DNA of 64,000 nucleotides from an uncultured Candidatus Woesearchaeota archaeon (GCA_963835585.1 CAWIGF010000003.1:516530-580529), one strand, 5' to 3'; shown: positions 20,096 to 64,000, counted from the first letter of the stretch. Translations and numbers: made by a program. Notes: generated by a model not told the origin, from the sequence alone.

Positions 20096-20160
20096 GGCTG
20101 ATAGTAACATTTATATAGCGTTACCAGGTTTTAGAATCTATAATTTGAGGGGTAATTACT

Positions 20161-20397
20161 ATGAACGAAATGGAATCATCAAGGCCTCTGGATGCCTTAA
20201 ACAAGTCACGGAACAAGAAAGTCCTTGTTGAACTGAAGAACAACAAGCAGTACGTAGGCAAGCTCAACTCATTCGATATCCACATAAATGTTGTATTGGA
20301 CGAAGCAGAAGAACGATTCGAAGGCGAAGTGAAGAGAAAGCTTGGCACTGTTTTCTTGCGGGGAGATACAATAACAATAATAGTACCAACGGAGTAA
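20161..20397 (+). CDS. Sm-like archaeal protein (LSm/SmAP)
   Basis: 78 aa with Sm1/Sm2 motifs (VLVELKNNKQYVGKLNSFDIHINVVL...VFLRGDTI). Confidence 0.8.
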   Translation: MNEMESSRPLDALNKSRNKKVLVELKNNKQYVGKLNSFDIHINVVLDEAEERFEGEVKRKLGTVFLRGDTITIIVPTE

Positions 20398-20398
20398 A

Positions 20399-20563
20399 AT
20401 GACAAAGGGATCAGTTTCTCAGGGAAAAAGATCTAAGAACATAATGATGATAGCGTGCAGGAGATGCGGCACGCGAACATTTCATGTTACGAAGAAGAAA
20501 TGCTCAAGTTGCGGGTTCGGAAAAAGTGCACGCATGAGAAAATACGCCTGGCAGAAGAAATAA
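20399..20563 (+). CDS. rpl37e: ribosomal protein L37e
   Basis: 54-aa ORF missing from the ORF track; I translated it myself (MTKGSVSQGKRSKNIMMIACRRCGTRTFHVTKKKCSSCGF...RKYAWQKK). C2C2 Zn-ribbon. The Sm-L37e pair is conserved in archaea. Confidence 0.8.
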   Translation: MTKGSVSQGKRSKNIMMIACRRCGTRTFHVTKKKCSSCGFGKSARMRKYAWQKK

Positions 20564-20618
20564 CTGATTTCTAAACATCAATACATTTAAAAACAAAATA
20601 CAAGTAGATTTCTTTAAC

Positions 20619-20724
20619 GCGGGGTTGCCAGAGCGGTCAAATGGGACAGGTTTAGGGGAGCTCAAAAGCATCTAAGAACCCTGTTGGCTTAGTGCCTTCG
20701 CAGGTTCGAATCCTGTGCCCCGCA
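20619..20724 (+). tRNA. tRNA-Leu (anticodon TAG; class II) with ~22-nt intron
   Basis: Acceptor GCGGGGT/GCCCCGC, Leu/Ser-type D-loop GAGCGGTCAAA, anticodon stem ACAGG/CCTGT. Loop TTTAGG followed by an insert containing CTAA complementary to the anticodon, then a variable arm GGC-TTAGT-GCC and T-arm GCAGG-TTCGAAT-CCTGT. An AAG anticodon cannot be fully excluded. Confidence 0.6.
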
Positions 20725-20911
20725 AGTTTTTGGATTTTGATATTTTTTGGATAAATTATCACAACATTTTTTAGTACTATCCAGAAACAAAAAAGAAATA
20801 TTTTGTTGATTATAATTCAGAACAAATGTGTTTGAAATCCATTAGATTTAAATATTAATTACTTGGAAGATATAATTGGAAAAGGCTATTTGGGTTTAAA
20901 AAAGAGGACAT

Positions 20912-21853
20912 ATGAAACAAACACTCGTTGCTTTAGCGGTTCTTTTGACACTATTGACTGTTGGCATACATGTTGTTAATGCAGATATACAAGAGATAAA
21001 TACTACCGCAAGTCAGGTAATAAACGCGGGTTCTCAGGACAATGCCATATTCGAAGTCCAGACGCTAAAATACGAACCATATCCTGTTAATGCGGGAGAT
21101 TGGTTCGACATATGGATCAAGGCGGAAAATATCGGGAATGATGACGCGATAAATTCGCAGTTCATATTGATCCCTGAATATCCATTTGAGGCCGATAACG
21201 AATCATCACTTACTCAGAACTTGGGAACGGTTCCCGGCATGACATCCGCTTACCTGAACAGGCAACAAGGAGAGATTAGTCAGGAGAGCAATTATGTCAC
21301 GTTGAAATTCAGGGTCAAGGTTGCTGACAACGCTCCGGAGGGAGACAGCAGCCTGAAAATAATGAGCAGAACAGACAACACTGGAGATTTCGTTTATTTG
21401 CTTCCGATCACAATAGAAAAGACAAAGACAGATTTTGAGGTAAAAATGAATGACCTTAATGCGCAGGAGACGTCATTCATAGTGACAAATTCAGGAGAAA
21501 AAGCAGCGGAGTCGGTAGTCATAAATGTTCCTCCGCAGGATGGCGTCGTACTTTTGCAGGGAGAAGGACCAGTTTCGATGGGGGACATGAATAGCGGTGA
21601 TTTCAGCATAGCGCACCTGGACATATTGCCGACGCAAAATGCAACTAACATAACGATGGACATATCATACACGGACATTTCCGGAATAAGGGACACGATA
21701 ACAAAAACAGTCCCAATCGACAGCACAAAATTATCCCTCATCTATGCGCCAATATCCCATTCGAATTACACATGGACATTCGGCATAGTCGGATTTCTGA
21801 TTGGGGCATTCATAGTCATATTTGGAATAAGGATTTTCCATAAAAAGAAATGA
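20912..21853 (+). CDS. secreted surface protein with C-terminal TM anchor
   Basis: 313 aa. Signal peptide MKQTLVALAVLLTLLTVGIHVVNA, a CARDB/Ig-like middle region, and a C-terminal hydrophobic helix plus a basic tail (IFHKKK). Confidence 0.45.
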   Translation: MKQTLVALAVLLTLLTVGIHVVNADIQEINTTASQVINAGSQDNAIFEVQTLKYEPYPVNAGDWFDIWIKAENIGNDDAINSQFILIPEYPFEADNESSLTQNLGTVPGMTSAYLNRQQGEISQESNYVTLKFRVKVADNAPEGDSSLKIMSRTDNTGDFVYLLPITIEKTKTDFEVKMNDLNAQETSFIVTNSGEKAAESVVINVPPQDGVVLLQGEGPVSMGDMNSGDFSIAHLDILPTQNATNITMDISYTDISGIRDTITKTVPIDSTKLSLIYAPISHSNYTWTFGIVGFLIGAFIVIFGIRIFHKKK

Positions 21854-22548
21854 CGATTGTTGTACGATATGGAGAAAAAAAATCATCTCTAGCCGAAATA
21901 GAAAAAGTTATAGAGAAGGATGAGAAGAAAGTTACTAACTTCTTCGGACGCCAGAGCACTATAAATTTTTTGATAATATTCGTATTTGCTGTTCTTTTAG
22001 CGGGTGTGCTCTACCTATCCACCGAAGAAAATCAAGTCTACATAGAGAATTCATTGGTCGACGCTCCCGTGATTTCACTTTCTTCGGAAACACCAGGAGT
22101 GCTGGATTACATATTTGTCAAGGAAGGAGATCATGTTACGGCAGGCATGACTGTCGCAGAAGTTAACGGAACTCCGATAAAAGCTCAAATAGATGGATTG
22201 GTAACATCTGTTTTCAACACACCGGGCCAGATAGTCAATAGCGAAACACCAATTGTCAATATGATTGATCCCCAGCAATTGAGGATTGTCGGGGCCCTTG
22301 AGGAAGACAAGGGACTCAAGGACATAAAAGTCGGGCAGAAAGCCGTATTTACATTGGATGCGTTCGGTTCTGAGAAATTTGATGGCGTAGTTGACTCGAT
22401 AGGCCAGACGTCAGCAGCCCAAGACATCGTTTTTAGCATATCCAGTACAAGACAGGAAAAAAACTTCGACGTGTATGTAAAATTCGATGCGAACCAATAC
22501 CCCCAAATCAAGAGCGGCATGTCTGCTAAGATATGGGTATACAAATAA
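21850..22548 (+). CDS. HlyD/EmrA-type membrane fusion protein
   Basis: 232 aa. N-terminal TM, a biotin-lipoyl-like hairpin (GDHVTAGMTVAEV) and a beta-barrel region. The ATGA overlaps the upstream gene, and the downstream gene is a major-facilitator-superfamily (MFS) EmrB-like pump. Confidence 0.6.
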   Translation: MTIVVRYGEKKSSLAEIEKVIEKDEKKVTNFFGRQSTINFLIIFVFAVLLAGVLYLSTEENQVYIENSLVDAPVISLSSETPGVLDYIFVKEGDHVTAGMTVAEVNGTPIKAQIDGLVTSVFNTPGQIVNSETPIVNMIDPQQLRIVGALEEDKGLKDIKVGQKAVFTLDAFGSEKFDGVVDSIGQTSAAQDIVFSISSTRQEKNFDVYVKFDANQYPQIKSGMSAKIWVYK

Positions 22549-22557
22549 GCAAATACT

Positions 22558-24036
22558 ATGGCAGAATCCAATCTAAGATGGTGGGTGCTTACGACAGTCA
22601 TCATCGGCACTTTTCTTGGACGTCTTGATCAGACTATAGTGAATCTTGCGCTGCCAAAGATAATAACCGCATTCAGGATTACCGTTGTTTCTGCCGGTTG
22701 GATCGCGACAGCGTACATAATCGCGAACGCGGTTTTTGTTCCAGTCTGGGGGAAATTGGGAGACAAGGTCGGAAGAAAAAAAATTTACATCCTTGGATTC
22801 AGCATATTCATATTAGGATCAGTCCTTGCGGGTCTTGCCTGGAATCTGACATCCCTGATTTTTTTCAGGGTCATACAAGCGACGGCAAGCGCTGCTGATT
22901 ATCCGACTGCCATGGCCATTATCACCATCACATTCAAGCAGGGAAAAGAACGCGCCCAAGCCCTTGGGTTATGGTCGACATCATTTGCCGCAGCAACAGT
23001 ATTTGGACCATTGATCGGCGGTCCATTGATCGATTTTTTCGGATGGCGCTCTGTTTTCTTGGTGAACTTACCAGTCGGCATAATAGGTATGTTCATGGCT
23101 ATAAAATTTATTGACGAATCTGTATCCAACGACAGAAAGGAGAAATTCGACATCTGGGGAACCATTTATCTAGGAGTAACGTTGTCTTCCTTGGTTCTTG
23201 TCCTTGATCAGGGGATGACATGGGGCTGGCTGTCGCTTAACAGCATAATTTGCTACGTAGTCATTGTCGTATTCTTCATACTATTTTATCTTACAGAGAA
23301 GCATCACACGGATCCTATTGTGGATCTGAAATTTTTCAAGAACAAGATATTTGTCGGCACTTTGGTAAATAATTTTGTGGTCTTCATGGGGATGATGGGA
23401 AGTGTATTCCTCATCCCTTTGTTCTCACAGACGTTTCTGGGATATAGTGCACAGCAAAGCGGATACCTTTTCATTCCAATGGCGGCATTCATGGTGATTT
23501 CTGCCCAGATCGGTGGACGCCTTATTGGAAAGATAAAATCAAATTATGTAATGGCATTGAGCACATTCATTGCCGCAATAGGATTAATGATGTTTGGCCT
23601 TTACATAGATCCACGTTCAAATGCATGGGCTATAGTAATTCCCCTTTCAGTCATGGCATTTGGTCTAGGCCTGGGGATGGCGCAGCGTACTAGCGCCATT
23701 GCGAACGCCGTCCCCCAGAACGAGATCGGAATCGCATCGTCCATTCTGGCGCTTACGAGGAACATTTCGGGAGCGTTCGGGATAGCTATTTTTGCGACGA
23801 TACTTGATAACAGAATCACTAGTAACATAATAAGAACTGCGCAGCATACCGTCATTAATTCAATTAACCCAACTGTATATCAAAAAGTGGCCGGACTGAT
23901 AATACTCAAGTCAGAAGTTTCCGCATATTCGTATGTCTTCTGGATATCCGCGCTGGTTGTCTTCATCGGCGCTATCATGGCCTTGTTCATAAAAATAACA
24001 AAAGAAACGAACGTGAAAGTGCACATAGACGCGTGA
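22558..24036 (+). CDS. MFS drug efflux transporter, EmrB/QacA (DHA2, 14-TMS) family
   Basis: 492 aa, about 14 hydrophobic segments. MFS motifs are present (GRLDQTIVNLALP; GKLGDKVGRKK). Confidence 0.8.
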   Translation: MAESNLRWWVLTTVIIGTFLGRLDQTIVNLALPKIITAFRITVVSAGWIATAYIIANAVFVPVWGKLGDKVGRKKIYILGFSIFILGSVLAGLAWNLTSLIFFRVIQATASAADYPTAMAIITITFKQGKERAQALGLWSTSFAAATVFGPLIGGPLIDFFGWRSVFLVNLPVGIIGMFMAIKFIDESVSNDRKEKFDIWGTIYLGVTLSSLVLVLDQGMTWGWLSLNSIICYVVIVVFFILFYLTEKHHTDPIVDLKFFKNKIFVGTLVNNFVVFMGMMGSVFLIPLFSQTFLGYSAQQSGYLFIPMAAFMVISAQIGGRLIGKIKSNYVMALSTFIAAIGLMMFGLYIDPRSNAWAIVIPLSVMAFGLGLGMAQRTSAIANAVPQNEIGIASSILALTRNISGAFGIAIFATILDNRITSNIIRTAQHTVINSINPTVYQKVAGLIILKSEVSAYSYVFWISALVVFIGAIMALFIKITKETNVKVHIDA

Positions 24037-39845: not shown

Positions 39846-40796
39846 TCAGATGTATTTCATGTAAATAAAAAAGAATTTTCTGAAAGTGTCTTCCATCTTC
39901 TCCAGCAAAAATCTCAGCAGCTTTGGCTTGTGACCGTTATCAAACGCATCCAGCGCATTAAAATAAGGGCCTCGCACGGTTTTCCTTATTATTAGGGGGG
40001 AATAGCCATTCTCCAGAAGAATTGCATTAATCAGAATCCTTCCGACCCTGCCATTCCCGTCCTCAAACGGATGAATCTTCTCAAACCTACCGTGGAATTC
40101 GGAAGCCATCTTAAGCGGATGCTCCTTTCCTTTGTTTTTTTCATACCATAAGACAAGCGCATTCATCTCTTTTTCAACGTCTTCAGGAGGCGTAGTTTTT
40201 ACGTTTCTCATCAAGAGAAAATTTGGTATTTTTTTAAATCCTACTTGAATTCCTGTGTCTTTCACAAGGACGGAATGGAGTTTGATTATATCCGCGATTG
40301 TTATTTTGATTTTGCCGGCAAACAAAAGCTCATTGGCATCCCTTGTATTTTTGGTATCATAAACCTCTCTCAAATCCTTTCCCTTGGGGAGTATGTTGTG
40401 GGAAAAAAACAGAGTTACATCTTTCAAAGTCAGTGAGTTCCCCTCGATTGCATTCGATTCATATGTGAAATTTGCAGTGAATCTATCCAGTATGTCCTTG
40501 AACTGCGCCTTTGTCAAACTTCTGATTATTTGTCTGTATTCAGCCTTGAACAATTCCAACTTCTCTATTTTTTGCTTGGTGAGAACATAATCAGGGATGT
40601 ACTTTGATGAGGCATATTTGGCATATTCCTCTTCCTCTTTTCTTAGAAAGTATTTCTTAGTTTCCGGTCCTTTTGCCTCTTCCGCGCTTTTGACCAGTTT
40701 CGAGGTTTTCTTCACGTTTCCGTTCGGCAGCCTAAATGAATGCTCTGCATACAAGTATTCTTTGCCATTGATTCTTTTCTTTCTTACGCTGACCAT
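39846..40796 (-). CDS. fic: Fic/Doc family protein (AMPylase-type motif HPFEDGNGRVGR)
   Basis: Canonical Fic motif HPFEDGNGRVGRILINAILL. The probable start is the internal M (MVSVRKKRING...), because the upstream in-frame codons cover a palindrome and a TATA-like element. Confidence 0.8.
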   Translation of the reverse strand: MVSVRKKRINGKEYLYAEHSFRLPNGNVKKTSKLVKSAEEAKGPETKKYFLRKEEEEYAKYASSKYIPDYVLTKQKIEKLELFKAEYRQIIRSLTKAQFKDILDRFTANFTYESNAIEGNSLTLKDVTLFFSHNILPKGKDLREVYDTKNTRDANELLFAGKIKITIADIIKLHSVLVKDTGIQVGFKKIPNFLLMRNVKTTPPEDVEKEMNALVLWYEKNKGKEHPLKMASEFHGRFEKIHPFEDGNGRVGRILINAILLENGYSPLIIRKTVRGPYFNALDAFDNGHKPKLLRFLLEKMEDTFRKFFFIYMKYI

Positions 40797-40914
40797 ACTC
40801 TTATTTACCCCTACAAATATATAAATGTTGTGTTTTTGTAGGGGTAAAAGAACCCATCGTCCAGCGAAACCCGGATTTGACAATATTTAAATAATAGTTT
40901 CTTTTTGCTGTTGC

Positions 40915-52195: not shown

Positions 52196-52268
<73 letters not shown>

Positions 52269-52273
52269 TTAAT

Positions 52274-52344
52274 GCGATGATGGTTAAATGGTAGAATATA
52301 GCCTTCCCAAGGCTGTGATCCGGGTTCGATTCCCGGTCGTCGCA
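52274..52344 (+). tRNA. tRNA-Gly (anticodon CCC)
   Basis: Acceptor GCGATGA/TCGTCGC, anticodon stem TAGCC/GGCTG, loop TTCCCAA, T-arm CCGGG-TTCGATT-CCCGG. 71 nt. Confidence 0.7.
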
Positions 52345-52354
52345 GTTGAAAGAA

Positions 52355-52466
52355 GCGATGATAGTTGAATGGTACAATACGACCTTGCCAATAGCGGCCG
52401 TCCGAGACGTTCGGATGTTTGCCAAGCAAACAGGTTGTGGCCCGGGTCCGATTCCCGGTCATCGCA
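52355..52466 (+). tRNA. tRNA-Gly (anticodon GCC) with ~41-nt intron
   Basis: Acceptor and D-arm are nearly identical to the Gly-CCC gene. Anticodon stem CGACC/GGTTG, loop TTGCCA|A, with a 41-nt insert at 52391-52431. The insert contains a TCCGA-gacgt-TCGGA hairpin and a second TTGCCAAGCAA copy of the anticodon loop. Confidence 0.65.
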
Positions 52467-52500: not shown

Positions 52501-52584
52501 GGTGGTTTAGATTTATAGGACGGCCCCCGGTCATCGCATGAATTTTGAATCTTCTTTTTTTGAATAAATTACTATTTTGCACAC
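52501..52584 (+). repeat. direct repeat A (tRNA-Gly 3'-end-like; downstream flank of fic cassette)
   Basis: GGTGGTTTAGATTTATAGGACGGCCCCCGGTCATCGCATGAATTTTGAATCTTC...TGAATAAATTACTATTTTGCACA. The ...GGCCC-CCGGTCATCGCA segment equals the tRNA-Gly(GCC) 3' end with the 11-nt T-loop deleted. Confidence 0.65.
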
Positions 52585-52627: not shown

Positions 52628-53554
52628 CTATAATCTAAATTGATCTATAACAACTTCGAACATTTTCTCGCAGTATTTCTTGACATTTTTTACATTGTAA
52701 TAATCGGTTGCTTCATAATATTTTGCCCTTAATTTAACGGGAACAAATAGTTTCGGATAGTTGGATTTCATTAAAATCCAATTCATCAAAGCTCGCCCCG
52801 TTCTTCCGTTTCCGTCCTCAAATGGATGAATTTCGACAAATTGCGCATGTACCAAGCAAGCTAAGACAAAAGGATGAATCTTTCTTTTATTTTGTTCATA
52901 AAATTTAATCATTTCATTAAGCAGGGGCTTGACTTTTTCGGGTGACGGCGGAACAAACTCTGTTCCTTCAATTTTTACAGGAAAGAATCTTACCCGCCCA
53001 GGATAAATGACCCCTGTATTTTGTGTCAGAATTAAATTCATTTTCTCCAAAAACTCGATTGTTAACTTTCCCTTGTATCTTTTGATAAAATCTAGCGCTT
53101 CTCTTCCATTCAATGCTTCATTGTAGTCCTTTGGAGGAGCTCCTGATGGAATTTGTTTTTCCTTGATAACTAAAAATGTATCTCTCAAAGTTAATCTATT
53201 TCCTTCGATTGCATTTGAATTATAAGTAAATCTGATGACAAAATCAGTTTCTTCTTTTTCAAGTATCGTCTTTGGAATTGTTTTAAGATGATTACCGTAC
53301 ACTTCCTTAAAATCATCGATGATTTCAAGTTTATCTGCATCCAGATAGTTTTCGTTATAGACTTTGTATTCTTCGAGTTTCAATTCTTTTAATTTTTCTC
53401 CTATCTGTTCTCGTGTTGGTTTATGTTCACCTAACTTTATCCTTATTTTCTTCCATTTGTCTTTCCCGACTCTGATTGTTTTCCCCAGGTAGTAGAAGTA
53501 TTTGTTTCCAGATCGTATTCTATCAACGTATGCCACAGGATATTTATTGTCCAC
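52628..53554 (-). CDS. fic: Fic/Doc family protein (motif HPFEDGNGRTGR), paralog of 39846..40796
   Basis: 308 aa. Fic motif IHPFEDGNGRTGRALMNWIL. The N-terminal domain is shared with the other Fic protein. It uses an apparent GTG start, overlapped by a 9-bp inverted repeat (TTGTCCACA ... TGTGGACAA) that flanks a TATA-like box. Confidence 0.8.
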   Translation of the reverse strand: MDNKYPVAYVDRIRSGNKYFYYLGKTIRVGKDKWKKIRIKLGEHKPTREQIGEKLKELKLEEYKVYNENYLDADKLEIIDDFKEVYGNHLKTIPKTILEKEETDFVIRFTYNSNAIEGNRLTLRDTFLVIKEKQIPSGAPPKDYNEALNGREALDFIKRYKGKLTIEFLEKMNLILTQNTGVIYPGRVRFFPVKIEGTEFVPPSPEKVKPLLNEMIKFYEQNKRKIHPFVLACLVHAQFVEIHPFEDGNGRTGRALMNWILMKSNYPKLFVPVKLRAKYYEATDYYNVKNVKKYCEKMFEVVIDQFRL

Positions 53555-53691: not shown

Positions 53692-53780
53692 GGCGGTTTA
53701 AACCTATAGGTCGGTTCCCGATCGTCGCATGAATTTTAGATTTTCATATTACTTTCTGAATAAATTCTCTGTTTTTCATA
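53692..53780 (+). repeat. direct repeat B (tRNA-Gly 3'-end-like; upstream flank of fic cassette)
   Basis: GGCGGTTTAAACCTATAGGTCGGTTCCCGATCGTCGCATGAATTTTAGATTTTCATATTACTTTCTGAATAAATTCTCTGTTTTTCATA. It is about 75% identical to repeat A, and its tRNA-like end (TCGTCGCA) resembles the tRNA-Gly(CCC) 3' end. Confidence 0.65.
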
Positions 53781-54129: not shown

Positions 54130-54235
54130 GAGCCCGTAGCTTAGCCTGGTGGAGCGTCGGTCTTATATGGCAACGTTTCATTGAAACGGTGATTAGGAAC
54201 ACCGGTGGTCGAGAGTTCAAATCTCTCCGGGCTCA
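54130..54235 (+). tRNA. intron-containing tRNA, anticodon TAT (Ile) candidate
   Basis: Acceptor GAGCCCG/CGGGCTC, D-arm GCTT-AGCCTGGTG-GAGC, anticodon stem TCGGT/ACCGG, loop CTTATA followed by a ~33-nt insert with a CGTTTCA-TT-GAAACG hairpin. T-arm GAGAG-TTCAAAT-CTCTC, discriminator A. Confidence 0.55.
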
Positions 54236-54569
54236 CTTTTATTGATTTGAACCCCTAACTGAGAAAATTGAGTTATGGGGTCTCCTGATAAAGAATAATT
54301 AGATTTAGGCAAAAATGATATTTTCATCGTTTCTACATTTATTTTAGTTTTTTGCATGTTTTTGAGGAGACAAGGTTTTTAGTGATTATCTCCTTGACCG
54401 ACCCTTCGTTATAGACTTTGTAATGCCCATTCTTCATAAATCTTTTCCTATTTTTATGGATTTGAACCCTTGACCTAATTTTATTAATAAATACTGCCAA
54501 GAAATAATTATCCGAAACGGATATTTTCTGGATTTAGTTTAATTAACTTTTTTTGACAATTAGTCTTCT

Positions 54570-54764
54570 ATGAAATGTTTACATTGTAAAAAAGAACTTG
54601 AAGAACATGAATACAAATTTTGTATTACTTGTCTGAGAGCTTTGAAGCATAAGTATGCGAAAGAAGCATTGTCAATGACTGAACTTGAATTTGAGGACTG
54701 GCTAAATGAAAAATATGAGATTCAGTATAAGGCAGACCGCCACTTTAGAAGATTTCAAAACTGA
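54570..54764 (+). CDS. small Cys-pair protein (Zn-ribbon-like)
   Basis: 64 aa with MKCLHCKK...FCITC. First ORF of the low-GC island. Confidence 0.3.
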   Translation: MKCLHCKKELEEHEYKFCITCLRALKHKYAKEALSMTELEFEDWLNEKYEIQYKADRHFRRFQN

Positions 54765-55104
54765 AATCGGTTGGCTGATGATTTTCACAGCCTTGTATTT
54801 GCCGTTTTCAATAATTATTTCGCTGAAAGGAAATTACCTGCATCTTTTTTTATCATCTGTAATGTCAGGAGCTCTGCTTACGATTGAGTTCAGAGATATG
54901 TTCACTAAAGAAAACAAGCCAACCCCCATACAGATGAGGCCTCAGAGGAAGCAGGAGATACGCCATCCTGAAATTGAGCGTATCCCTGTTTCTTCTCCAT
55001 TTCCTTTCATGAATACAAACACGGAGGTAAAAAATGAAACCCAAGCAAATAATGATGTATCTGTTGTTGGGAATGATGCTGTTAACACCGATAGCGTTTG
55101 CTGA
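54706..55104 (+). CDS. hypothetical membrane protein (2 TM)
   Basis: 132 aa. It overlaps its neighbours in other frames, so the boundaries are uncertain. Confidence 0.3.
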   Translation: MKNMRFSIRQTATLEDFKTEIGWLMIFTALYLPFSIIISLKGNYLHLFLSSVMSGALLTIEFRDMFTKENKPTPIQMRPQRKQEIRHPEIERIPVSSPFPFMNTNTEVKNETQANNDVSVVGNDAVNTDSVC

Positions 55105-55333
55105 CAGCACATTTGACGACATTTTGAAACCCGTTGTCAAAATATATGATTTCGCAAAATATGCGGCATCAATTATTGCGATGATATTTCTGTTATTTGC
55201 AGGAATAACATACATGACATCAGGCGGAGATACACAAAAGCGTGAACAAGCAAAGAACATGGTTGCGTATGTTGTGATTGGCCTAATTGTAATTTGGGCA
55301 GCACCATACTTAGTGGACTTGCTGACAAAATGA
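55034..55333 (+). CDS. VirB2/TrbC-like pilin candidate
   Basis: 99 aa: a signal peptide (MKPKQIMMYLLLGMMLLTPIAFA) and two hydrophobic helices separated by a short polar loop (SGGDTQKREQAKN). This is the canonical conjugative-pilin topology and size. Confidence 0.45.
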   Translation: MKPKQIMMYLLLGMMLLTPIAFADSTFDDILKPVVKIYDFAKYAASIIAMIFLLFAGITYMTSGGDTQKREQAKNMVAYVVIGLIVIWAAPYLVDLLTK

Positions 55334-56649
55334 AAGCAATACTGCTTATGCTGTTGTTAATTCCGACAGCATTTGCTTTGGATTGTGCAAATGTTCAGGA
55401 TTCCACTAATTGCAATTATATTCTGAACAGCGACATTCCACAATCTGAGAAAAATGATTTAATTTCTAATTTAATTTATGTTGGAAATCAATTTCCTGAT
55501 TTTGATTCCGTTTTGAATTGGAATAAAGGACTTGATGTTTCAGAAAATCTTGGCTTCAAAACATATTCTTCGACTTACATAAAGAACGCTTGGATTAAAT
55601 CATTAGCTGTTGTTCCTTCTGTTGTTGATGAAACTTTGTTAGTTGCTCCAAACGGAACGATGCAATGCACGTATGATTATGATGTTGTTATTGACAAAAA
55701 GCTAATTGGAAACGACTGCAAGACAAATTACAAACTTCTTTCTCAAAAAGCAGAAGTCAAGAATTATGTCAATAATGTTTATCAGAACTCAGGAACTCTT
55801 GTCAAATATCAAAGCGATGCTGATGTTTTGAATTTTAAATCTGAATTGAATGTTGAAGCTAATGTTCAAATCGAACACTACAAAATCAGAAGATATTGCT
55901 GTTCAAGAGATGCTTTCGGTAGCTGTAAACATTACTGTACAGTTTGTGAATATAAAAGCACAGAAACAAAAACAGACAAATTGGTTGTTTCTGATTCCAT
56001 TAATGCTAAAAAAGAAAATGCTTTTCCCAAATTAAATCTTGAAGTTCTAAATCAATACAACGGAAACACAAAAATAAGATTTAATTATTCTGATGTTGAA
56101 GCATTTAGAATTGATTTTGCTGATTCTTACATTTCTGAAACAAGAACTTCTTACGTTCCTAATTTCACAATTTACAACATCATGCAGTTGTTTTCAAAAG
56201 AATTGATTGACAGAAATTCTCAAAATGTTGTTTTCTTAAATAACAATACATTTCTTGTGAAAAATACAAATGGCTGTTCAATTACTCTGTGGACACATTT
56301 TACTCAAATAAAACAATCTTGCAATTTAACTTATGTTCCTGTTTCTATTTCGATAAAAACTGATAAGTTTACTTACAAAGAAAACGAAACTATCAAAGTT
56401 TCAATTATTCCGAATGATATTTTTGTTAATTTAAATTATGGAGATATTAGCAAGTTAGCAAAAGGAAATTCTGAATTTATTGTCAAACAGCCGTTCAACA
56501 GAATTGTTGGAACTTACAAAGATGCTTCTGCTGACGCTTTAATCGCTGTGAAAACTGAGAATTGGACTACTTTATTTCAACTAGGAACATTTGCAGGAGC
56601 AAATCTTGCATTATTTGCGATGGTGAGAAAATTCAAAACTGCGGATTAA
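55330..56649 (+). CDS. secreted Cys-containing protein with C-terminal TM anchor (T4SS-associated surface/adhesin candidate)
   Basis: The ATGA start overlaps the pilin stop. Signal peptide MKAILLMLLLIPTAFA, 12 Cys, N/K-rich, C-terminal hydrophobic helix (LFQLGTFAGANLALFAMV). Confidence 0.4.
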   Translation: MKAILLMLLLIPTAFALDCANVQDSTNCNYILNSDIPQSEKNDLISNLIYVGNQFPDFDSVLNWNKGLDVSENLGFKTYSSTYIKNAWIKSLAVVPSVVDETLLVAPNGTMQCTYDYDVVIDKKLIGNDCKTNYKLLSQKAEVKNYVNNVYQNSGTLVKYQSDADVLNFKSELNVEANVQIEHYKIRRYCCSRDAFGSCKHYCTVCEYKSTETKTDKLVVSDSINAKKENAFPKLNLEVLNQYNGNTKIRFNYSDVEAFRIDFADSYISETRTSYVPNFTIYNIMQLFSKELIDRNSQNVVFLNNNTFLVKNTNGCSITLWTHFTQIKQSCNLTYVPVSISIKTDKFTYKENETIKVSIIPNDIFVNLNYGDISKLAKGNSEFIVKQPFNRIVGTYKDASADALIAVKTENWTTLFQLGTFAGANLALFAMVRKFKTAD

Positions 56650-56732
56650 CTAATTTAGCAACTTGTTTGCCTGAAAAGTTCTTTGATTTCATTCTTACAA
56701 TAATCAATGCTCCATTAACTCCATTAATCAAA

Positions 56733-57464
56733 ATGGCACAATCACTTCTTACCGAGCAAGTCAACGTAGAATTATTTCATGGATTGTGGGGAACAATGGT
56801 TTACGTTATCTCGATGTTTTACGGATTATATTTTATAATTGCAGGATTTAATTTAATGATTTCAGGATATGACGCAGAAAAAAGAGAAAAAGCAAAGTCT
56901 TGGCTGAAAAATACTGTGCTTATGGTTTTCTTTGTTCAAGCTTCATATTTATTGTATTCATTAGTTCTTGAATTAGCATCAGGATTAAGTTCAGGAGCGA
57001 TGAGCTTGATTGATGCAAACTTCTTTTTATTGACAACTGATAATTTAGCGAGTATTGGATTAGAAATAATGCTATTTCTTGCTTATGCACTTGTTCTTCT
57101 TTTAACTTCATTATTGCTTGTTCTTAGATACATTTGTGTTGGTGTTGGAGTTATGTTTGTTCCAATCGGAATTTTCTTTTACTTTACACCTATGCTTGAA
57201 GAATACGGAAAACTGATACTAAATGCACTTTCTGTGATTATTTTCCTTCCTTTTGTTCAGGTTTTGATTTTACTTGCTTCATCAAAGCTAATTTCAATGC
57301 CTATTTTTGCAAATATGAAAATCTTAGTGATGATTTCCTCATTTTTATTTATTGACTGCGTTATGATTTTGCTTTTCCTGTTTGTGATAGCAAAAGCAGC
57401 AATGTCGGCATTGCGTTCAGATGTTGGAAAGACAGCTTCAATGGTTTATGGTAAACTAACATGA
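56733..57464 (+). CDS. VirB6/TrbL-like polytopic membrane protein candidate
   Basis: About 243 aa from MAQSLL, with 6-7 TM helices. The first helix-loop region (FIIAGFNLMISGYDAEKREKAKSW) resembles the pilin-like ORF. Confidence 0.4.
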   Translation: MAQSLLTEQVNVELFHGLWGTMVYVISMFYGLYFIIAGFNLMISGYDAEKREKAKSWLKNTVLMVFFVQASYLLYSLVLELASGLSSGAMSLIDANFFLLTTDNLASIGLEIMLFLAYALVLLLTSLLLVLRYICVGVGVMFVPIGIFFYFTPMLEEYGKLILNALSVIIFLPFVQVLILLASSKLISMPIFANMKILVMISSFLFIDCVMILLFLFVIAKAAMSALRSDVGKTASMVYGKLT

Positions 57465-57760
57465 CTTACGAAATACCGCAACAGCTTCAATATGAAGAAA
57501 AGATTATATTCGGATTAAATTTCAAGCAGTTGCTATATGCAATTATATTTTTCCCTATTGGAATTATTATTTTTCTCAAGTCGGGATTAAATTTAGAGAT
57601 TAAATTAACACTCTCTTTAATCCCTATTTTAATCGGTGTTGCATTCATGTTCTTTGACTTGAAAGATTGGTTGAGTTCTGTTTGGCAGTGGCTGAAATTC
57701 AGAGAAGTGTTTCTTAATGGATTTGAAAATGAAAACGTTCTTGGGATTAAAGAATGTTGA
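57461..57760 (+). CDS. VirB3-like small membrane protein candidate
   Basis: 99 aa with 2 TM helices, immediately upstream of and overlapping the VirB4-like gene. This is the typical VirB3-VirB4 arrangement. Confidence 0.35.
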   Translation: MTYEIPQQLQYEEKIIFGLNFKQLLYAIIFFPIGIIIFLKSGLNLEIKLTLSLIPILIGVAFMFFDLKDWLSSVWQWLKFREVFLNGFENENVLGIKEC

Positions 57761-60557
57761 GAAAGGAGTTATTCAGGCACATGGAAAGAAAATTGCTTTG
57801 ATTAAGGTTGAGCCTACAAACTTTGCAATTAGAAATAATGATGAGAAAGAAGTTATTATCAAAGGATTTCAGAAGTTCTTGAACTCCCTTGATTTTCCGA
57901 TACAGATTTGCGTTGGAACAGAAGTTTTGAACATTGACAACTATCTGAACGTCTTGCAGTCAAGAGTAGATGAAACAATAAAGAAAACAAAGAATGATTT
58001 GTATAAAAAGCAGTTTGATTCATACAAAGAGCATTTATTGGAATTAATTAAAAATAATCAAGTTCTGAATAGGTCTTTCTATGTTGTAATTCCTGAAAAG
58101 AAAAGCATTAGTTTGGAAGTTCAGACAAATGTATGCCTTGAAAAATTAAAAGCACTTGATTTGAAAGTCAGAGAAATTAAGGATAATGAAGAAGCAACAC
58201 AAATTATTGCGGGATTTTTCAATAACTTGCAGGAAGATGAAGATAAGTCAGAGCTTCTTGAGAACGATAAAATAAGCGATAAGAATTTATTGCATTACTT
58301 AGTTGCTCCTAAATTCATTCTAAACCATCAAAAATCAATTCAGGTCAACAATAAGTTAGTAAGGACAATTACTGCCTCAGGCTATCCTCGAATTGTTGAC
58401 CCAGGATTCATGGACAGAATAATAACAGCGAATGGCGATTTTGATTTAAGTCTTGCATATTGAGCCTTATGCTATCGAAAGCATGATGTTAATGTTAAAT
58501 AAAGAATTGCAGAAGCAAAGAGCGGACTTGTATTCTGCTCAGATAAAAAATGCCGTCAATCCTTCTTTAGAAATAAAATACCAAGATACTAAGAATGTTC
58601 TTGAGAATTTGCAGAAAGGAAATGAGAAATTGTTTAATGTTTCGCTTTATGTTAATTGCAAAGCAAGAGATGAAAAAGAATTAAACATAACTATCAAAGA
58701 AAGTCGAGTCTGAATTAAATTCCATTATGATGATTCCGAAAGTTCCTTCTTTCAGAATGGCACAGGGAATTAAATCAGTTGCTCCATTTGGAATTGATGA
58801 TTTAAACATAAAAAGAAATATTCCTACTTCTGCCTTATCTGCTTTCTTTCCTTTTACTTCTCAATTCTTGCAAGTTGATGAAAAAGGAGTTTGGCTTGGA
58901 TTGAATAAAAATAATATTCCAATTATCAAAGACATATTTTCATTTTCAAATCCAAACGGAGTAATTATGGCTTCATCAGGAGCAGGAAAATCATACATGG
59001 CAAAATTATTTATTGCAAGACAATTACTGAACGGAACAAAAGTAATGGTTATTGACCCTCAATCAGAATATGTTAAATTATCTGAAACATATGGTGGTCA
59101 AACAATAACAATTTCAAAAACATCTGATACAATAATTAATCCTCTTGATTTAATGGGACATGATTATTCTGAAAAAAGATTAGCGTTAATGGATTTGCTT
59201 CCAGTTATGCTTGGCTCAGAAGAAACTTCTGAAATTCAAAAATCAGTTTTAGATAGAGCATTAACAGAAGCTTACTCAAAGAAAAGAATTACAAATGACC
59301 CTGAAACTTGGGTTAATGAACCGCCAATACTTTCTGATTTAGTCTCGGTAATTGGAAATAATGTCGAAGAAAGCAACAATCATAGAAAGACCCACGTATA
59401 ATTCATTAATCAATCGTTTGAATATGTATACAACAGGAGCATTTTCATTTTTGAATAGACAGACAAATATTAATTTTGATAATCGCTTTGTTGTTTTCAA
59501 CATTGGAGAAATGCCGAAACAAGTAAAGCCTGTTGTTATGTTCTTGATTCTTGATTATGTTTATATGAAAATGAAGAAAGACAGAGAAAGAAAACTTCTT
59601 GTTATTGATGAAGCGTGGTCTTTATTGTCAAGAGCAGAAGATTCTTCTTACATTTTTGAAATTGTTAAGACGTGTCGTAAGTTTAATTTAGGATTATTGT
59701 TAATCACTCAAGATGTTGCAGACTTATTAAATAGTCAGGCAGGAAATGCTGTTTTATCTAATTCTGCTTATACAATTATGTTAAGACAAAAACCCGCAGT
59801 TATTGACAGAGTTGGAGCTACATTTCATTTGAGTTCTTCTGAAAGAAACAGATTACTTACAGCAAATGTCGGTGAAGGATTAATCATAATGGAAAACGAC
59901 CATTCGGAAATTAAAATCGTTGCTTCTGAAAAAGAGCATGAATTAATCACAACAAATGCAGATGAATTATTGAAACAAGAAAATAAAGAAGAAGTCGTAA
60001 AGAAGAAACAAAACATAAACGTAAAAGTAGATGCTGATAATGGATTATTCAGAAAGAAAGAATTGACAAACCATGATATTGATTATCTTCTTGAGAAAGA
60101 TTACAAGATTTTATCTGCGATTGGTTTGCATGGCGGAAGAAGAGAAGATTATCTTGTCATGCCACGTTCAAATGAAAGTCCCATTCATTTCTTTTTATGC
60201 AAGACCATTTCCGATTTTGTAAAACAATATACTGAGAAAGTGTGGCTGTATCAAACAAAAAAGCCAGATATTGTTTTCCAAGCTGACGGAAAAATATTTG
60301 CGATTGAAATTGAAACAGGAAGCAGACTTACTTATCATGCAGAAATGTTTGACAAAAAAGTGGAACAGCTCAAAAAAGAGTATGGGGAGAATTGGTTGAT
60401 TGTTGTGTCGGACAGAAAAGAGAGAGCAGTATGCGAGGCATGGCAGAACGATTGTTCGGGGCGAAGTGGGGGAGTTTGTGCGGGGGTTAGTTCGGGCGGG
60501 TTGAGGAGGGTTAGAGAGGGGTCTGTGGGGGCAAAATTCGGGCAGATTACGGGTTAA
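57717..60557 (+). pseudogene. VirB4/TrbE/CedB-type conjugative ATPase, interrupted by three +1 frameshifts
   Basis: Four overlapping ORFs in frames 0/1/2/0 cover this span: 57717-58463, 58453-58713, 58727-59401, 59352-60557. The N-terminal VirB4 domain has EPTNFAIRNNDEKE...YVVIPEKK...VAPKFI. Walker A is VIMASSGAGKSYMAK. Walker B/DEAW is RKLLVIDEAWSLL, followed by LLITQDVADL. A ~200-aa non-ATPase C-terminal extension follows. Confidence 0.7.
60440..60545 (+). repeat. G-rich, C-poor tract with multiple G3-G5 runs
   Basis: GTTCGGGGCGAAGTGGGGGAGTTTGTGCGGGGGTTAGTTCGGGCGGGTTGAGGAGGGTTAGAGAGGGGTCTGTGGGGGCAAAATTCGGGCAGATTACGGG. Strong strand-asymmetric G enrichment inside an AT-rich island. It coincides with the end of the VirB4-like ORF. 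Confidence 0.6.
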
Positions 60558-60869
60558 ATCGCATTGCGATAAGAGCAACTCATCAGAACTCATAATTAAG
60601 GTGTCTCACGCCTTAGGAGAGCAAAACAATGGAAAACAACACAACAATTTGAGCCAAAGAAACCTGACTTACAGGTGCATTACAACAAGTCAAAGGACGG
60701 CAGATATTTGATTGTCAAAACGACAATAACTGACATCAAGCCAATAGCTTACTTTGAGAAAGTTTTGGAAAACAACCCTCAGGAATGAGGGCTTTCTTTC
60801 TTTTAAAGCACAACCTCAGAAAACCTTTATAAAGAAGCCATTCAATAGGTGTGGTAGATTGGTGCAAGA

Positions 60870-61406
60870 ATGTTAGAACTAAAAGACAACATAATCAAAC
60901 CCATGATTCCCACAAAACATAAAAAAGATAATGTTAAATGTGAAGAAGCACCCGTCAACATAACAAAAGAGCTTTCTAAAATTCGTCAACAAATATCTGA
61001 AACACGAAAAGAAATACAAGTTGCCGTTGTTCCGAAGTTTCTCGAAGTTTCTACTGAAGCAAAAGATTTGATTGAACACGCCGTAGAAATATGGAGACTT
61101 GAACAAAAAATAAATAAGATTTTGCCAATATTGCCTGAAAATCAGAAGGAAACTTTTGTCAATATACTGAAGAAACTAAAAAGGTATTTGGAAAAGAACG
61201 ATATCGAAATTTTGGACTACACCAATCAAAAATTCAACGATGGTCGAAACTTGGAAATTCTTTCGGTTGAAAAAAATCCTAAAATTTCAGAATCAACAAT
61301 AAAAGAGACAAAAGAACCAACAATAATGTGCAAGGGACAAGTTGTTAGAAGAGGCAAAGTCATAATATCAGCAAAAGACGACAAACTATCTGCTGGTGAA
61401 AAATGA
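60870..61406 (+). CDS. grpE: GrpE-like nucleotide exchange factor
   Basis: 178 aa with a coiled-coil N-terminus and a C-terminal beta-domain pattern (F.DGRNLEIL.....KGQVVRRGKVIISA). It lies immediately upstream of, and overlapping, the Hsp70 gene. Confidence 0.5.
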   Translation: MLELKDNIIKPMIPTKHKKDNVKCEEAPVNITKELSKIRQQISETRKEIQVAVVPKFLEVSTEAKDLIEHAVEIWRLEQKINKILPILPENQKETFVNILKKLKRYLEKNDIEILDYTNQKFNDGRNLEILSVEKNPKISESTIKETKEPTIMCKGQVVRRGKVIISAKDDKLSAGEK

Positions 61407-63892
61407 CGAACGAAACAATTTTAATAGGAATTGATTTGGGTACTACTAACTCTTCTATTGCAGTCAATATCAATGGAAAAATAGAAATTATAAAAAAACC
61501 AGGTGGTTTAGAATATACTCCTTCTGTTTTCGGATTTGATAAATCTAAGAACAAAATTGTTGGAGATGTTGCTTACAAACAATTATACAAATTTGGTGAC
61601 GATAAAAACTTTAAAGCAGAAATAAAGAGAGAAATGGGTACCCCGGGATCTTTTTTCTTTGAAAGGGCAAAAGTTAAAATGACTCCTGAAGAAATATCCG
61701 CAGAAATACTCAAAAGTTTGAAGGAGGATTTACTCAAAAGACATCCTGATTTTAATACATCTGCGGCAGTAATCACGGTTCCTGCTGCATTCTCTGTTTT
61801 ACAAGCAGAAGCCACAAAAAGAGCAGGAAAATTAGCGGGATTTGATTATGTTGTCTTACTGCAAGAACCTATTGCTGCTTCGATTGCTTACAATTTTATG
61901 AATGCGAAAAATGAGAATTGTTTGATTTATGATTTGGGAGGAGGAACTTTCGATATAGCTCTTGTTTCTTGTAAAGATGGGATGTTATCAGTTATAGGTC
62001 ATAACGGAGATAACTTCCTTGGTGGAAAAAATATTGATTGGGAGATTGTGGAAAAAATAATCATTCCAAAAATTCTGGCGAAATATAAATTAACTAATTT
62101 CAAAAGAAGAAATAAAAAATATTCTAGCACTTTTTCAACATTAAAGTATCTTGCAGAGCAGGCAAAAATTGAATTATCTGACTACAAAAAAACAACAATA
62201 GATATAGACGACATAGGAAAAGACGATGATGGGAAAAATATTCGCATTTCTATTGATTTAACTAGAACTGAGTTTGAAAAATTAGCCAAGCCAGTTATAG
62301 ACAAAACAATCGAACTGACGAAAAAAACGCTAAGCGAAGCTGGAGTTAAAAATACATCTGTTAAAAAGATAATTCTCGTCGGAGGACCAACACAAATTCC
62401 ATATTTGAGAGAAAGACTGGAAGCAGATTTAAAAATAAAAGTTGATTCATCCGTTGACCCGTTGACTGTCGTTGCTCACGGAGCTTGTATTTTTGCGATG
62501 AGCCAGAAAATCCCAAAGAAATTCTTGAAATCTGATAATAAAAAAATAGAGAAAGGTACACACGAAATCACTTTGAATTATGTAACTCTAACATCCGAAA
62601 CTGAAGAATCAATCACAGGAATTGTTGACGGACTAAATAATAAAGAACAATACTATGTACAAGTTCAATCAGATAGTGGAACTTTTACTGGACCTAAGAC
62701 AAAGATAAATAATGGGAAGATATACTATACTGTTGATGTTGAAAAAAATAAACAAAATCTTTATTGGATATATATTTTTGACAGCAAAGGAAATCCGATA
62801 AAAATATCTCCTGATTCATTCATAATTACTCACGGAATTTCTGTATCTGGAGCTCCCCTTCCGAAATCAATAGGTGTTGTTGTTATGTCAAATGACTTCT
62901 CTAGAAATAGAACAATCAACATTTACGAAAAAATATTTGAGAAAGGAGACATACTCCCTCTTAAAAAAACACTGGATGTATACAAAACATCAAGAAAACT
63001 GAAAAAAGGAGAAGATGGTTCACTAGATGTAGAATTACTTGAGGGAGAATCTGAGATTCCTGACCGTAATGATTTTGTCTGTGGCGTTGGTTTTAAAGGA
63101 AAAGATATGCCTCACGACATACCTGCTGGAACTCCAATTGAATTAACATTAGAAGTAAATGAGTCGAGAGAAATTTTCTTAACTGCGTACATTCCATTAA
63201 TAGATATGACCCTAAATGCTAGGTCGACTTTGAAAAATAAAGAAGTAGCTACAGAAGAACTATCTTCAGATTTAGAAACCCAAAGAAGAAGAATGGAATT
63301 CGCCTCGGAAGAATGCTCAATTGAGGAACGAAAAAAAATAGCAGACATGTTTGAATCCACATCAGACAGTGTAAAGAATTCGAGTGGAGATGAGGATGAG
63401 AAACGCAAAGCGGATAAACAATTAAAAGACTTGAAAATAGAATTGGACAAAATTGAAGAAGAAAAAGCCATGCCACAGCTTGTAAAAATATTTAACATTA
63501 TGTCAAATGAAGTGCAGAAAATAATCGATGAATATGCTGACCCAAAAGAAAGGGACGAATTAAAACGTGAACTTGAAAATATAAAAAAAGAAAGTAAAAA
63601 AGCAACCGAACAAAATGATAAGGCGTTGATGATAAGAGTAAACGAACAACTCGGAGATTTAAGAAATGCTGCCATATTTTCTAATCCAAACAGCTGGGTT
63701 GCTCATTTCAAACAAATTGTTCAGAATGACACGTTCATAAACGAACAACAAGCACAATATTACATAAATAAAGGAAATCGTGCAATAGAAACAGGAGATG
63801 TTGAGGAATTAAAACGTTGTACAAGACAACTTGCTCTGCTATTATCAAATGAAGACCAAAAAAACATGAAATTATCGGGAATAACGAGGTAA
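61403..63892 (+). CDS. dnaK: atypical Hsp70/DnaK-family chaperone (829 aa) with inserted domain and extended helical C-terminus
   Basis: Nucleotide-binding-domain (NBD) motifs IGIDLGTTNSSIAV, DLGGGTFDIAL and ILVGGPTQIPYL. A ~130-aa insertion follows the NBD. A substrate-binding-domain-like segment (LPKSIGVVV...LDVELLEGESEIPDRNDFVCGVGFKG...IPAGTPIELTLEVNESREIFLTA) follows, then a ~230-aa K/E-rich helical tail. Confidence 0.75.
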   Translation: MTNETILIGIDLGTTNSSIAVNINGKIEIIKKPGGLEYTPSVFGFDKSKNKIVGDVAYKQLYKFGDDKNFKAEIKREMGTPGSFFFERAKVKMTPEEISAEILKSLKEDLLKRHPDFNTSAAVITVPAAFSVLQAEATKRAGKLAGFDYVVLLQEPIAASIAYNFMNAKNENCLIYDLGGGTFDIALVSCKDGMLSVIGHNGDNFLGGKNIDWEIVEKIIIPKILAKYKLTNFKRRNKKYSSTFSTLKYLAEQAKIELSDYKKTTIDIDDIGKDDDGKNIRISIDLTRTEFEKLAKPVIDKTIELTKKTLSEAGVKNTSVKKIILVGGPTQIPYLRERLEADLKIKVDSSVDPLTVVAHGACIFAMSQKIPKKFLKSDNKKIEKGTHEITLNYVTLTSETEESITGIVDGLNNKEQYYVQVQSDSGTFTGPKTKINNGKIYYTVDVEKNKQNLYWIYIFDSKGNPIKISPDSFIITHGISVSGAPLPKSIGVVVMSNDFSRNRTINIYEKIFEKGDILPLKKTLDVYKTSRKLKKGEDGSLDVELLEGESEIPDRNDFVCGVGFKGKDMPHDIPAGTPIELTLEVNESREIFLTAYIPLIDMTLNARSTLKNKEVATEELSSDLETQRRRMEFASEECSIEERKKIADMFESTSDSVKNSSGDEDEKRKADKQLKDLKIELDKIEEEKAMPQLVKIFNIMSNEVQKIIDEYADPKERDELKRELENIKKESKKATEQNDKALMIRVNEQLGDLRNAAIFSNPNSWVAHFKQIVQNDTFINEQQAQYYINKGNRAIETGDVEELKRCTRQLALLLSNEDQKNMKLSGITR

Positions 63893-63897
63893 AAATA

Positions 63898-64000
63898 TGA
63901 CAAACCCAATTCAAAATAATGCTTATCGTTTGCTTGGACTAGATATAACTGCGAGCCAAAAAGAAATTTTGAAGAGATACAAAGAAATCATAAATAGATT
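63898..64000 (+). CDS. J-domain protein (N-terminal fragment at window edge)
   Basis: MTNPIQNNAYRLLGLDITASQKEILKRYKEIINR has a J-domain-like start (A/YxxLG.....S..EIkk.Y). It is truncated by the end of the window. Confidence 0.4.

Follow-up and report, generated by a model that had tools for sequence, protein, structure and literature searches.

A probable decaying remnant of a tRNA-adjacent, type IV secretion-like element in a Candidatus Woesearchaeota genome, from a DPANN family whose VirB4 carries a nuclease-like domain

What is a conjugation-like gene cluster doing beside a tRNA gene in an uncultured Candidatus Woesearchaeota archaeon, and can it still move? The question is raised by a 64,000-nucleotide stretch of DNA (GCA_963835585.1, CAWIGF010000003.1:516530-580529; the window hereafter), for which an original prediction had described an AT-rich island at 54236-60560 encoding a type IV secretion system (T4SS)-like DNA-transfer module and had proposed, among other options, an integrated conjugative element. 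Our answer, to which we give a probability of about 0.6, is that the region is a decaying remnant of an integrative element resembling integrative and conjugative elements (ICEs), from a family widespread in DPANN-type archaea (Woesearchaeota, Pacearchaeota and Nanoarchaeota). An integrated origin, which appears the best reading of the sequence, draws its evidence from the relatives, where integrases, tRNA genes and attachment-site (att)-like repeats accompany the module, and not from the window, where neither an integrase nor an att repeat was found.

The relatives are numerous. When the frame-corrected VirB4 ATPase of the island was used as query, at least 1008 proteins matched at E ≤1e-10 among 8000 candidates scored, and at least 205 stretches were confirmed with one genome taken per GTDB species, several contigs holding two copies; a cluster of this kind, originally thought unusual for an archaeon, is therefore very common in DPANN-type genomes. 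The best 120 homologues are 899-1134 aa long and cover 92-99% of the query, those with a named source come from Woesearchaeota, Pacearchaeota and Nanoarchaeota, and some bear the IMG label 'conjugal transfer ATP-binding protein TraC'. The closest relative (L002), at 73% identity, comes from a contig of 369 kb, with an archaeal rRNA operon beside it, and an integrase and a NikA-like gene are also found there. Clustering of all the open reading frames (ORFs) of 82 loci gave a conserved order, with counts that are lower bounds because many contigs are short: a Zn-ribbon protein (18 loci), a pilin (58/82), a DUF8186 surface protein (40 loci, and a short version in 12), a VirB6-like protein (66/82), PrgI, VirB4 and a small protein of family f10. 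No relative of the module was found among IMG/VR viral contigs, so nothing points to a virus. Searchable literature on VirB4, T4SS, conjugation and ICEs in DPANN or Woesearchaeota yielded no description of the module, which may have been described elsewhere; VirB4-like domains have been reported in giant nanohaloarchaeal proteins (PMC10266531).

What ties the module to integration is found upstream of it. There, a family of 390-aa proteins (f11) consists of XerA-like tyrosine recombinases by profile match to structures of archaeal XerA and XerC-like proteins (PDB 4a8e, 5.7e-13; 5hxy, 1.7e-12), with a Pfam Phage_integrase match in 18 of its 23 members and conserved R...K...R-H...W...Y residues. 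Counting also a second integrase family (f35), to which the L002 integrase belongs, a tyrosine recombinase is present in 31/82 loci, and in 21 of the 36 with at least 9 kb upstream of VirB4; the search for an integrase in other assemblies of the lineage, suggested at the outset, was thus successful. The integrase lies no more than 300 nt from a tRNA gene in 16 loci, nine times at Asp(GTC) and otherwise at Glu, Gly, Thr, Leu or Ile. In two loci the far end can also be seen: in L058 the tRNA-Thr 3' end is repeated as a 19-nt copy 16.7 kb downstream, and in L078 the tRNA-Asp 3' end as a 15-nt copy 14.7 kb downstream. Both are partial tRNA 3' ends lacking the tRNA body, and together with the tRNA genes they enclose integrase, module and cargo. 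The stretch from integrase to pilin frequently holds genes for an orphan N4/N6 methylase (27 loci), for an MT-A70 methylase and for a small ribbon-helix-helix (RHH)-like protein, the RHH reading being one without a Pfam match. The downstream cargo consists mostly of type I and other restriction-modification (R-M) genes and helicases, and reverse transcriptases and Lrp-type regulators also occur. An intact element would then adjoin a tRNA gene and run from a tyrosine integrase, often by way of an orphan N4/N6 methylase and an RHH protein, to the module and a variable, mostly R-M cargo.

Two contigs carry the module twice. On JAHWHZ010000001.1 (L036/L059) two whole modules lie about 20 kb apart with an integrase and a tRNA-Ile(GAT) gene between them, an arrangement that suggests tandem integrations, and JAIORZ010000011.1 (L065/L070) also holds two whole modules.

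The copy in the window has fared less well than its intact relatives. Its VirB4 gene (57717-60504, + strand) had been listed as an ATPase of the VirB4/TrbE family at 57717-60557, and as to family this was right: hidden Markov model (HMM) searches on the ORFs, the check proposed with the original prediction, returned VirB4-family matches, and Walker A (GAGKS) and Walker B (DEAW) are intact. The pieces match Pfam DUF87/HerA, P-loop_TraG and AAA_10 and, among NCBIfam models, conju_CD1110 (1.3e-38 and 2.4e-37), VirB4_plasma (7.8e-22), TraC and VirB4_CagE, colinearly over all four pieces and with scores that are all below the equivalog cutoffs. The gene is not intact, however. With intact homologues as tblastn queries the region is colinear but falls in four frames, and nucleotide alignment to the closest intact genes places the breaks at about 58455, 58687 and 59349 (+1 nt each) and, in a GA-rich run, at about 60420 (-2 nt). 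The frame-corrected stop is at 60502-60504 and not at 60557, and the corrected C-terminal tail aligns with invariant residues of the family; the corrected protein is 74% identical to an intact homologue, P0001. Directly downstream, the last gene of the shared module (f10, 60629-60788, + strand, about 56 aa in relatives) is 71% identical to the L002 copy by tblastn and has a +1 frameshift after codon 6 (about 60647).

Such breaks are out of keeping with both the window and the family. Among the window's roughly 70-75 ORFs no other split gene was found, the long ones all being whole and five suspicious overlapping ORF pairs proving to be separate complete genes, and each of the 78 related VirB4 genes that no contig end truncates is one uninterrupted ORF of 909 aa or more, in a set biased to high-scoring, intact copies. 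Programmed frameshifting is implausible, since four separate events would be needed in one gene that is a single ORF in 78 relatives. On sequence, then, the window's VirB4 is probably a pseudogene that cannot work, and any inactivation would be recent because Walker A, Walker B and all the C-terminal invariants are intact. Open frames remain in the pilin, surface-protein, VirB6-like and PrgI genes. Look-ups found no exact-protein record for the pilin, PrgI or three VirB4 fragments; those for the surface protein and the HSP70-like protein alone led to Logan contigs, in which 56.8-60.7 kb is missing. A G-rich stretch at 60440-60560, at the 3' end of VirB4, encodes a variable C-terminal tail in the corrected frame (RGEVGEFVRGLVRAG) and in the uncorrected one leads to the ORF end at 60557.

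The other end of the element appears to have gone. The intron-containing tRNA noted just before the island is indeed there, as tRNA-Ile(UAU) at 54130-54235 on the + strand (Rfam tRNA, 54.2 bits; Ile(tat) by ARAGORN with introns allowed), and forms the island's left border, where the element probably once integrated. Only 335 bp separate it from the Zn-ribbon gene, and where relatives have integrase, methylase and RHH genes this interval holds a fragment of a Fic-family gene (54339-54500, - strand), recognised by an exact 18-nt match to positions 53351-53368 of a nearby Fic gene and by a similar peptide (KVYNE...). A 23-nt repeat at 54237 and 54452 was discarded as an att site, being short and local. 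At the right, nucleotide homology to both L002 and a further relative, L003, stops at 60803, so that the shared module extends to about 60.8 kb; with L002 the homology begins at the Zn-ribbon gene at the protein level and at 54934 at the nucleotide level. Conservation in one syntenic position with genome-typical composition is not what we found, because the flanks differ among the window, L002 and L003. Since the integrase end is lost and VirB4 is inactivated by four frameshifts and f10 by one, the copy is most likely immobile and non-functional as a motor. As a degraded example it serves chiefly as evidence of the element's foreign nature and dispensability.

Base composition agrees in part with a foreign origin. 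The island had been estimated at about 30% GC against 40-45% in the rpo operon, and a contrast does hold, GC being 0.330 over 54236-60800 and 0.416 over 1-52000; no 6.5-kb window elsewhere falls below 0.382, and third codon positions have a GC of 0.19-0.41 in genes of the island and of 0.34-0.57 in housekeeping genes elsewhere. Low GC is nevertheless not confined to 54.2-60.6 kb. The tract runs from about 52.5 kb (a Fic gene with GC 0.34) to beyond 64 kb, its right part being a GrpE-like gene and an 829-aa HSP70-like gene (GC 0.33) up to the window end. Module and surroundings do not differ in 28 related loci with long flanks (0.323 vs 0.324), so it is the higher GC of this host, compared with the usual carriers, that makes the module look foreign here. 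The element in the window probably came from a lower-GC donor and has lost its integrase end.

Several results weigh against a decayed integrative element. A tblastn search with all the neighbour proteins of related loci found no integrase, methylase or RHH remnant in the window, and no second copy of the tRNA-Ile 3' end was found in the window or in L001. Of 17 loci tested, just two showed att-like repeats, no integrase lies within 10 kb in about 40% of the loci whose upstream flanks are long, and the putative element of L058 holds housekeeping-looking genes for a D-aminoacyl-tRNA deacylase and a radical S-adenosylmethionine protein. As originally noted, no integrase, relaxase or VirD4 was detected in the window (Pfam, NCBIfam, tblastn). 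The hope of finding a relaxase or VirD4 in other assemblies was disappointed as well, no relaxase, coupling ATPase/VirD4 or replication gene recurring within 10 kb in the 82 loci (by the 25 commonest Pfam families); the sole relaxase hint among the neighbours is a weak NikA-like RHH match, in a listing that does not include all singleton matches. Finally, the five indels are read from the assembly sequence only, the frame moves the same way at every one of them, and an independent Logan assembly (ERR10755942), whose contigs match 54519-56800 and 60696-64000+ at 99.7-99.96% with nothing between, is interrupted on both sides of the VirB4 stretch. It is on this last point that the system could prove to be working after all, with an intact VirB4 and five assembly or consensus errors, an outcome that we think improbable. 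It would suit the intact catalytic motifs and nuclease-domain invariants, the 74% identity to intact homologues, the uniform +1 direction of the shifts, the restriction of in-frame stops to places where shifts create them, and the end of the Logan contigs at 56800 and their resumption at 60696, which suggests strain heterogeneity or repeats there. Yet the indels lie outside long homopolymers, no other gene is split in 64 kb although low GC extends to both sides, five errors crowded into 3 kb are not what one would expect of a uniform error process, and the integrase end is missing too, which fits decay.

A different doubt concerns what the machine is for. It could be a host-adapted DPANN apparatus acting on partner cells, in DNA or nucleotide uptake or effector delivery, that does not transfer itself and merely tends to sit in variable, integrase-rich islands. 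The module is very widespread in one symbiotic lineage, processing incoming DNA would be a fitting task for a fused nuclease, and there are precedents both in the chromosomal, relaxase-less T4SS of Patescibacteria, with its PF18895/TrbC pilin, PrgI, VirB6 and VirB4 (PMC12102498), and in the Ced/Ted systems, which likewise combine a VirB2-like pilin, VirB6 and VirB4 and have no VirD4 (PMC9905601). We nevertheless hold it to be unlikely, given the recurrent integrase-tRNA arrangement, the att-like repeats around the module, the presence of more than one copy in several genomes, the non-syntenic positions in close relatives, the foreign composition, the decay in the window, which shows dispensability, and a CedB HMM score of 36 bits against a cutoff of 700. 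Integrase-tRNA order, att-like repeats, multiple copies, variable context and decay together favour a machine borne by mobile elements over a domesticated one. Much more remote is a restriction-like anti-phage defence, in which the ATPase-nuclease fusion would work with a nearby methylase instead of in secretion. The ATPase core does match PADLOC mad8 (4.8e-20) and HerA, orphan methylases occur in 27 loci with R-M genes around the module, and the fusion includes a PD-(D/E)xK domain; but homology to conjugative VirB4 is full-length, N-terminal domain included, and a pilin, a PrgI/VirB3 protein and a polytopic membrane protein, none with a role in known defence systems, are always co-encoded. 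We judged the mad8 match to be generic P-loop similarity.

The fusion itself, together with the small tRNA-integrating carriers, is the chief interest of the family, and in our view a moderate one. All the relatives have a C-terminal extension of VirB4 of about 190 residues (59940-60504 in the window, + strand), which appears to have a PD-(D/E)xK restriction-endonuclease-like fold. Its conserved E..H, PD, ExETG and K elements comprise the invariant residues E83, H87, D114 (in the PD motif), E127-x-E129-T-G and K144 (P0001 C-terminal numbering). The domain has no Pfam or PDB sequence match, and the likeness comes from an AlphaFold model (predicted local distance difference test score, pLDDT, 82; predicted template modelling score 0.71) whose alpha-beta-beta-beta-alpha-beta core has the PD-(D/E)xK layout. 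In our reading of the secondary-structure map, the acidic residues would be placed as they are in PD-(D/E)xK enzymes, on helix 1 and on strands 2 and 3. The third catalytic position of the putative D...(D/E)xK signature is E and not K; we take this Glu-for-Lys signature to resemble the BamHI-type ExE variant. A profile of the domain retrieved 728 clusters at 50% identity, which, to judge by length and match position, are VirB4 C termini. The best bacterial plasmid matches to VirB4, CD1110-family proteins (Firmicutes, Actinobacteria) and Spiroplasma ICE proteins, are 25-33% identical, align only to about residue 746 of 953 and do not have the domain.

How might such a machine work? In the scheme we propose, PrgI/VirB3 would anchor VirB4 to the VirB6-like membrane protein, VirB4 would drive the pilin out of the membrane and into a conjugative-type pilus that crosses the S-layer, and the surface protein with its immunoglobulin (Ig)-like domain would make cell contact. 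Because there is neither a coupling ATPase nor a relaxase, we infer that VirB4 itself handles nucleic acid, which its fused PD-(D/E)xK domain might cut or process. The machine might export DNA, import it or carry substrates other than DNA. Self-transfer is no more than putative, since no relaxase, coupling protein or replication gene recurs. More boldly, intact relatives may encode a DNA-transfer machine of DPANN that is free of both relaxase and coupling protein, with VirB4 as DNA motor and the PD-(D/E)xK domain in place of the relaxase, carried on small elements that integrate at tRNA genes and pass between symbiont and host cells or act on them; we regard this as a tentative idea, more likely wrong than right. 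If true, this would be conjugation or DNA exchange by a mechanism of a new type, and would link DPANN cells and their partners by a genetic route. These archaea live in dependence on other cells, and little is known of the machinery and mobile elements with which they exchange material; the family described here combines elements of about 15 kb that bear an integrase and are integrated at tRNA genes, a minimal T4SS whose pilin is of VirB2 type, and the VirB4-nuclease fusion. Were it functional in DNA transfer, it would offer a testable model of relaxase-independent archaeal conjugation and a vehicle for defence-gene traffic in DPANN genomes. In Patescibacteria, a very similar T4SS has been reported to be essential for epibiotic growth (PMC12102498).

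The family is a variant of known T4SS-like systems of archaea and of Patescibacteria (Candidate Phyla Radiation, CPR). The CPR T4SS shares with it an ultra-small symbiotic lineage, a monoderm (MPF_FATA/FA-like) VirB4, VirB2-like pilins recognised by PF18895/PF04956, PrgI/VirB3 and VirB6-like genes beside virB4, and a general absence of relaxase (PMC12102498). In contrast, the present host is archaeal, the module sits in tRNA/integrase islands and not near dnaA, and PrgI is fused to VirB4 in most loci, a fusion of which none was found in CPR (PMC12102498). The PD-(D/E)xK-fold domain of the module's VirB4 is a further difference, as is the lack of a TrsD-like second ATPase near the module. The two were compared by part list and not by a VirB4 tree, and the CPR study included no DPANN VirB4 sequences (PMC12102498). 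The Ced importers of Sulfolobales and Ted importers of Thermoproteales are also archaeal and minimal, with a VirB2-like pilin, a VirB6-like channel whose N terminus is pilin-like, a VirB4-like ATPase and neither VirD4 nor relaxase (PMC9905601). They are chromosomal and domesticated, whereas the module travels with integrases and adds PrgI, the DUF8186 surface protein and a nuclease-fused ATPase. At the sequence level the module is not a Ced member, because the CedB model scores 36 bits (2.8e-9) against a cutoff of 700; the CedD score is 24 bits against 600, and the likeness is architectural only.

Archaeal conjugative plasmids and ICEs (Sulfolobus pNOB8-type; thaumarchaeal) likewise integrate at tRNA genes by tyrosine recombinases, encode VirB4, VirB6 and VirB3, and have no detectable relaxase, but they pair VirB4 with a VirD4/TraG ATPase and are large, with a median of 64 kb (PMC6563490). 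The DPANN elements, by comparison, measure about 15-17 kb where bounded, and have no VirD4, a VirB2-type pilin and the VirB4-nuclease fusion. Monoderm conjugation modules (CD1110-family VirB4; PrgI/PrgJ of pCF10; Mbov_0397 of the Mycoplasma ICE) supply the best VirB4 HMM and plasmid matches and share a PrgI-family VirB3. These modules, however, include a coupling protein and a relaxase and usually lack a VirB2 pilin, and the module scores far below the NCBIfam cutoffs. In HerA-NurA and other HerA/FtsK-family pairs, a hexameric translocase works with a nuclease in soluble repair or defence complexes. The DUF87/HerA model matches the VirB4 ATPase core, which carries the fused nuclease-like domain; the module protein differs in its full VirB4 architecture and its membrane partners.

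Upstream of VirB4, every ORF originally listed for the island was found on the + strand, and the topologies agree. The first gene of the conserved module (family f7, 54570-54764) encodes a 64-aa Zn-ribbon protein with a CxxC...CxxC pattern and weak DZR matches, whose homologues lie directly 5' of the pilin gene in 18 loci. It is followed by a gene for a 132-aa protein with one predicted transmembrane (TM) segment (54706-55104), homologous to a 149-aa ORF in the same position in L002. The 99-aa pilin (55034-55333) is of VirB2/TrbC type, as had been proposed from its topology alone: PF18895 T4SS_pilin matches at 1.8e-15 and PF04956 TrbC at 4.4e-11, the Mbov_0395 pilin-like model matches too, and a signal peptide and two hydrophobic helices are predicted. 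Next comes the 439-aa secreted, Cys-containing surface protein (DUF8186, 55330-56649), identical to a database protein carrying PF26589. Its AlphaFold model (pLDDT 82, from a shallow 9-sequence alignment) starts with a signal peptide and a small helical part that bears Cys, continues with a region of very long beta strands and a sandwich of Ig/FN3/PKD-like type, and ends in a C-terminal TM helix; a fold search gave generic Ig/FN3 matches only.

The protein in the VirB6 position (56562-57464) had been called a 7-TM VirB6/TrbL-like protein. It is polytopic, with 5-7 predicted TM segments, but no TrbL or VirB6 HMM matches it, and the label rests on position, these segments and a pilin-like N-terminal TM hairpin (PF18895, residues 79-125, 3.2e-5), which is also seen in 25/40 family members. 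Pilin likeness of this kind has been reported for CedA versus CedA1 and for VirB6 versus VirB2 (PMC9905601). Profile searches against PDB sequences gave no match for either this family or the surface protein. The 99-aa protein with two TM segments at 57461-57760, predicted to be VirB3-like, indeed matches PF12666 PrgI (8e-8) and aligns to the N termini of two related proteins, P0002 and P0003. PrgI-family proteins are the monoderm analogue of VirB3; most relatives encode PrgI as a fusion with VirB4, and 12 loci as a free gene. Pfam models already exist for several of the parts (T4SS_pilin, PrgI, TraC-like PF26593, DUF8186).

Some neighbours of the module in other loci deserve mention. TFIIB homologues (family f33) occur in 8 loci (L069, L079, L082, L049, L051, L036, L044 and L059), often with two small conserved ORFs (f28, f54), and are likewise present in some thaumarchaeal ICEs (PMC6563490). 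Reverse transcriptase genes (f45) lie directly 3' of VirB4 in L003 (5211-6760), L064, L072, L073 and L078, that of L003 being accompanied by an Rfam RT-16 RNA (82 bits). In L002, a gene for a 2908-aa surface protein (14196-22922; CARDB, CBM96, Laminin_G) stands immediately 3' of the module.

The remainder of the window is archaeal in character. RpoB is split into B'' (619-2112) and B' (2109-3911) and RpoA into A' (3911-6484) and A'' (6485-7618), an S-layer-type protein is encoded, and two tRNA genes bear introns. To the right of the module, 60870-64000 together with L001 3202-4503 encodes a GrpE-like protein, an 829-aa HSP70/MreB-like ATPase with a long unannotated C-terminal extension (about residues 370-829), and an ORF, 434 aa or longer, that has no Pfam match. 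This trio adjoins the module in no other locus found and has no PADLOC match; in the Logan run ERR10755942 it is 99.7% identical.

To the left, a tRNA cluster at 52196-52466 comprises Val(TAC), Gly(CCC) and Gly(GCC), the last (52355-52466) with an intron of about 41-43 nt and missed by default ARAGORN and Rfam gathering-threshold runs. Two tRNA-Gly-like repeats at 52310 and 52432 were rejected as att sites, the second being this real intron-bearing tRNA-Gly(GCC). Beyond the cluster lies a Fic/DOC gene on the minus strand (52628-53554; Pfam Fic 5.8e-22, PADLOC SoFic 8e-34), flanked by a 59-nt imperfect direct repeat (52501-52559 and 53692-53750, 76% identity), each copy of which holds the last 13 nt of the adjacent tRNA-Gly genes (CCCGRTCRTCGCA). 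Gene and repeats together have the look of a small cassette that integrated at tRNA-Gly. Another full Fic paralogue is present at 39846-40883, and Fic genes are also found near the module in L008, L015 and L029.

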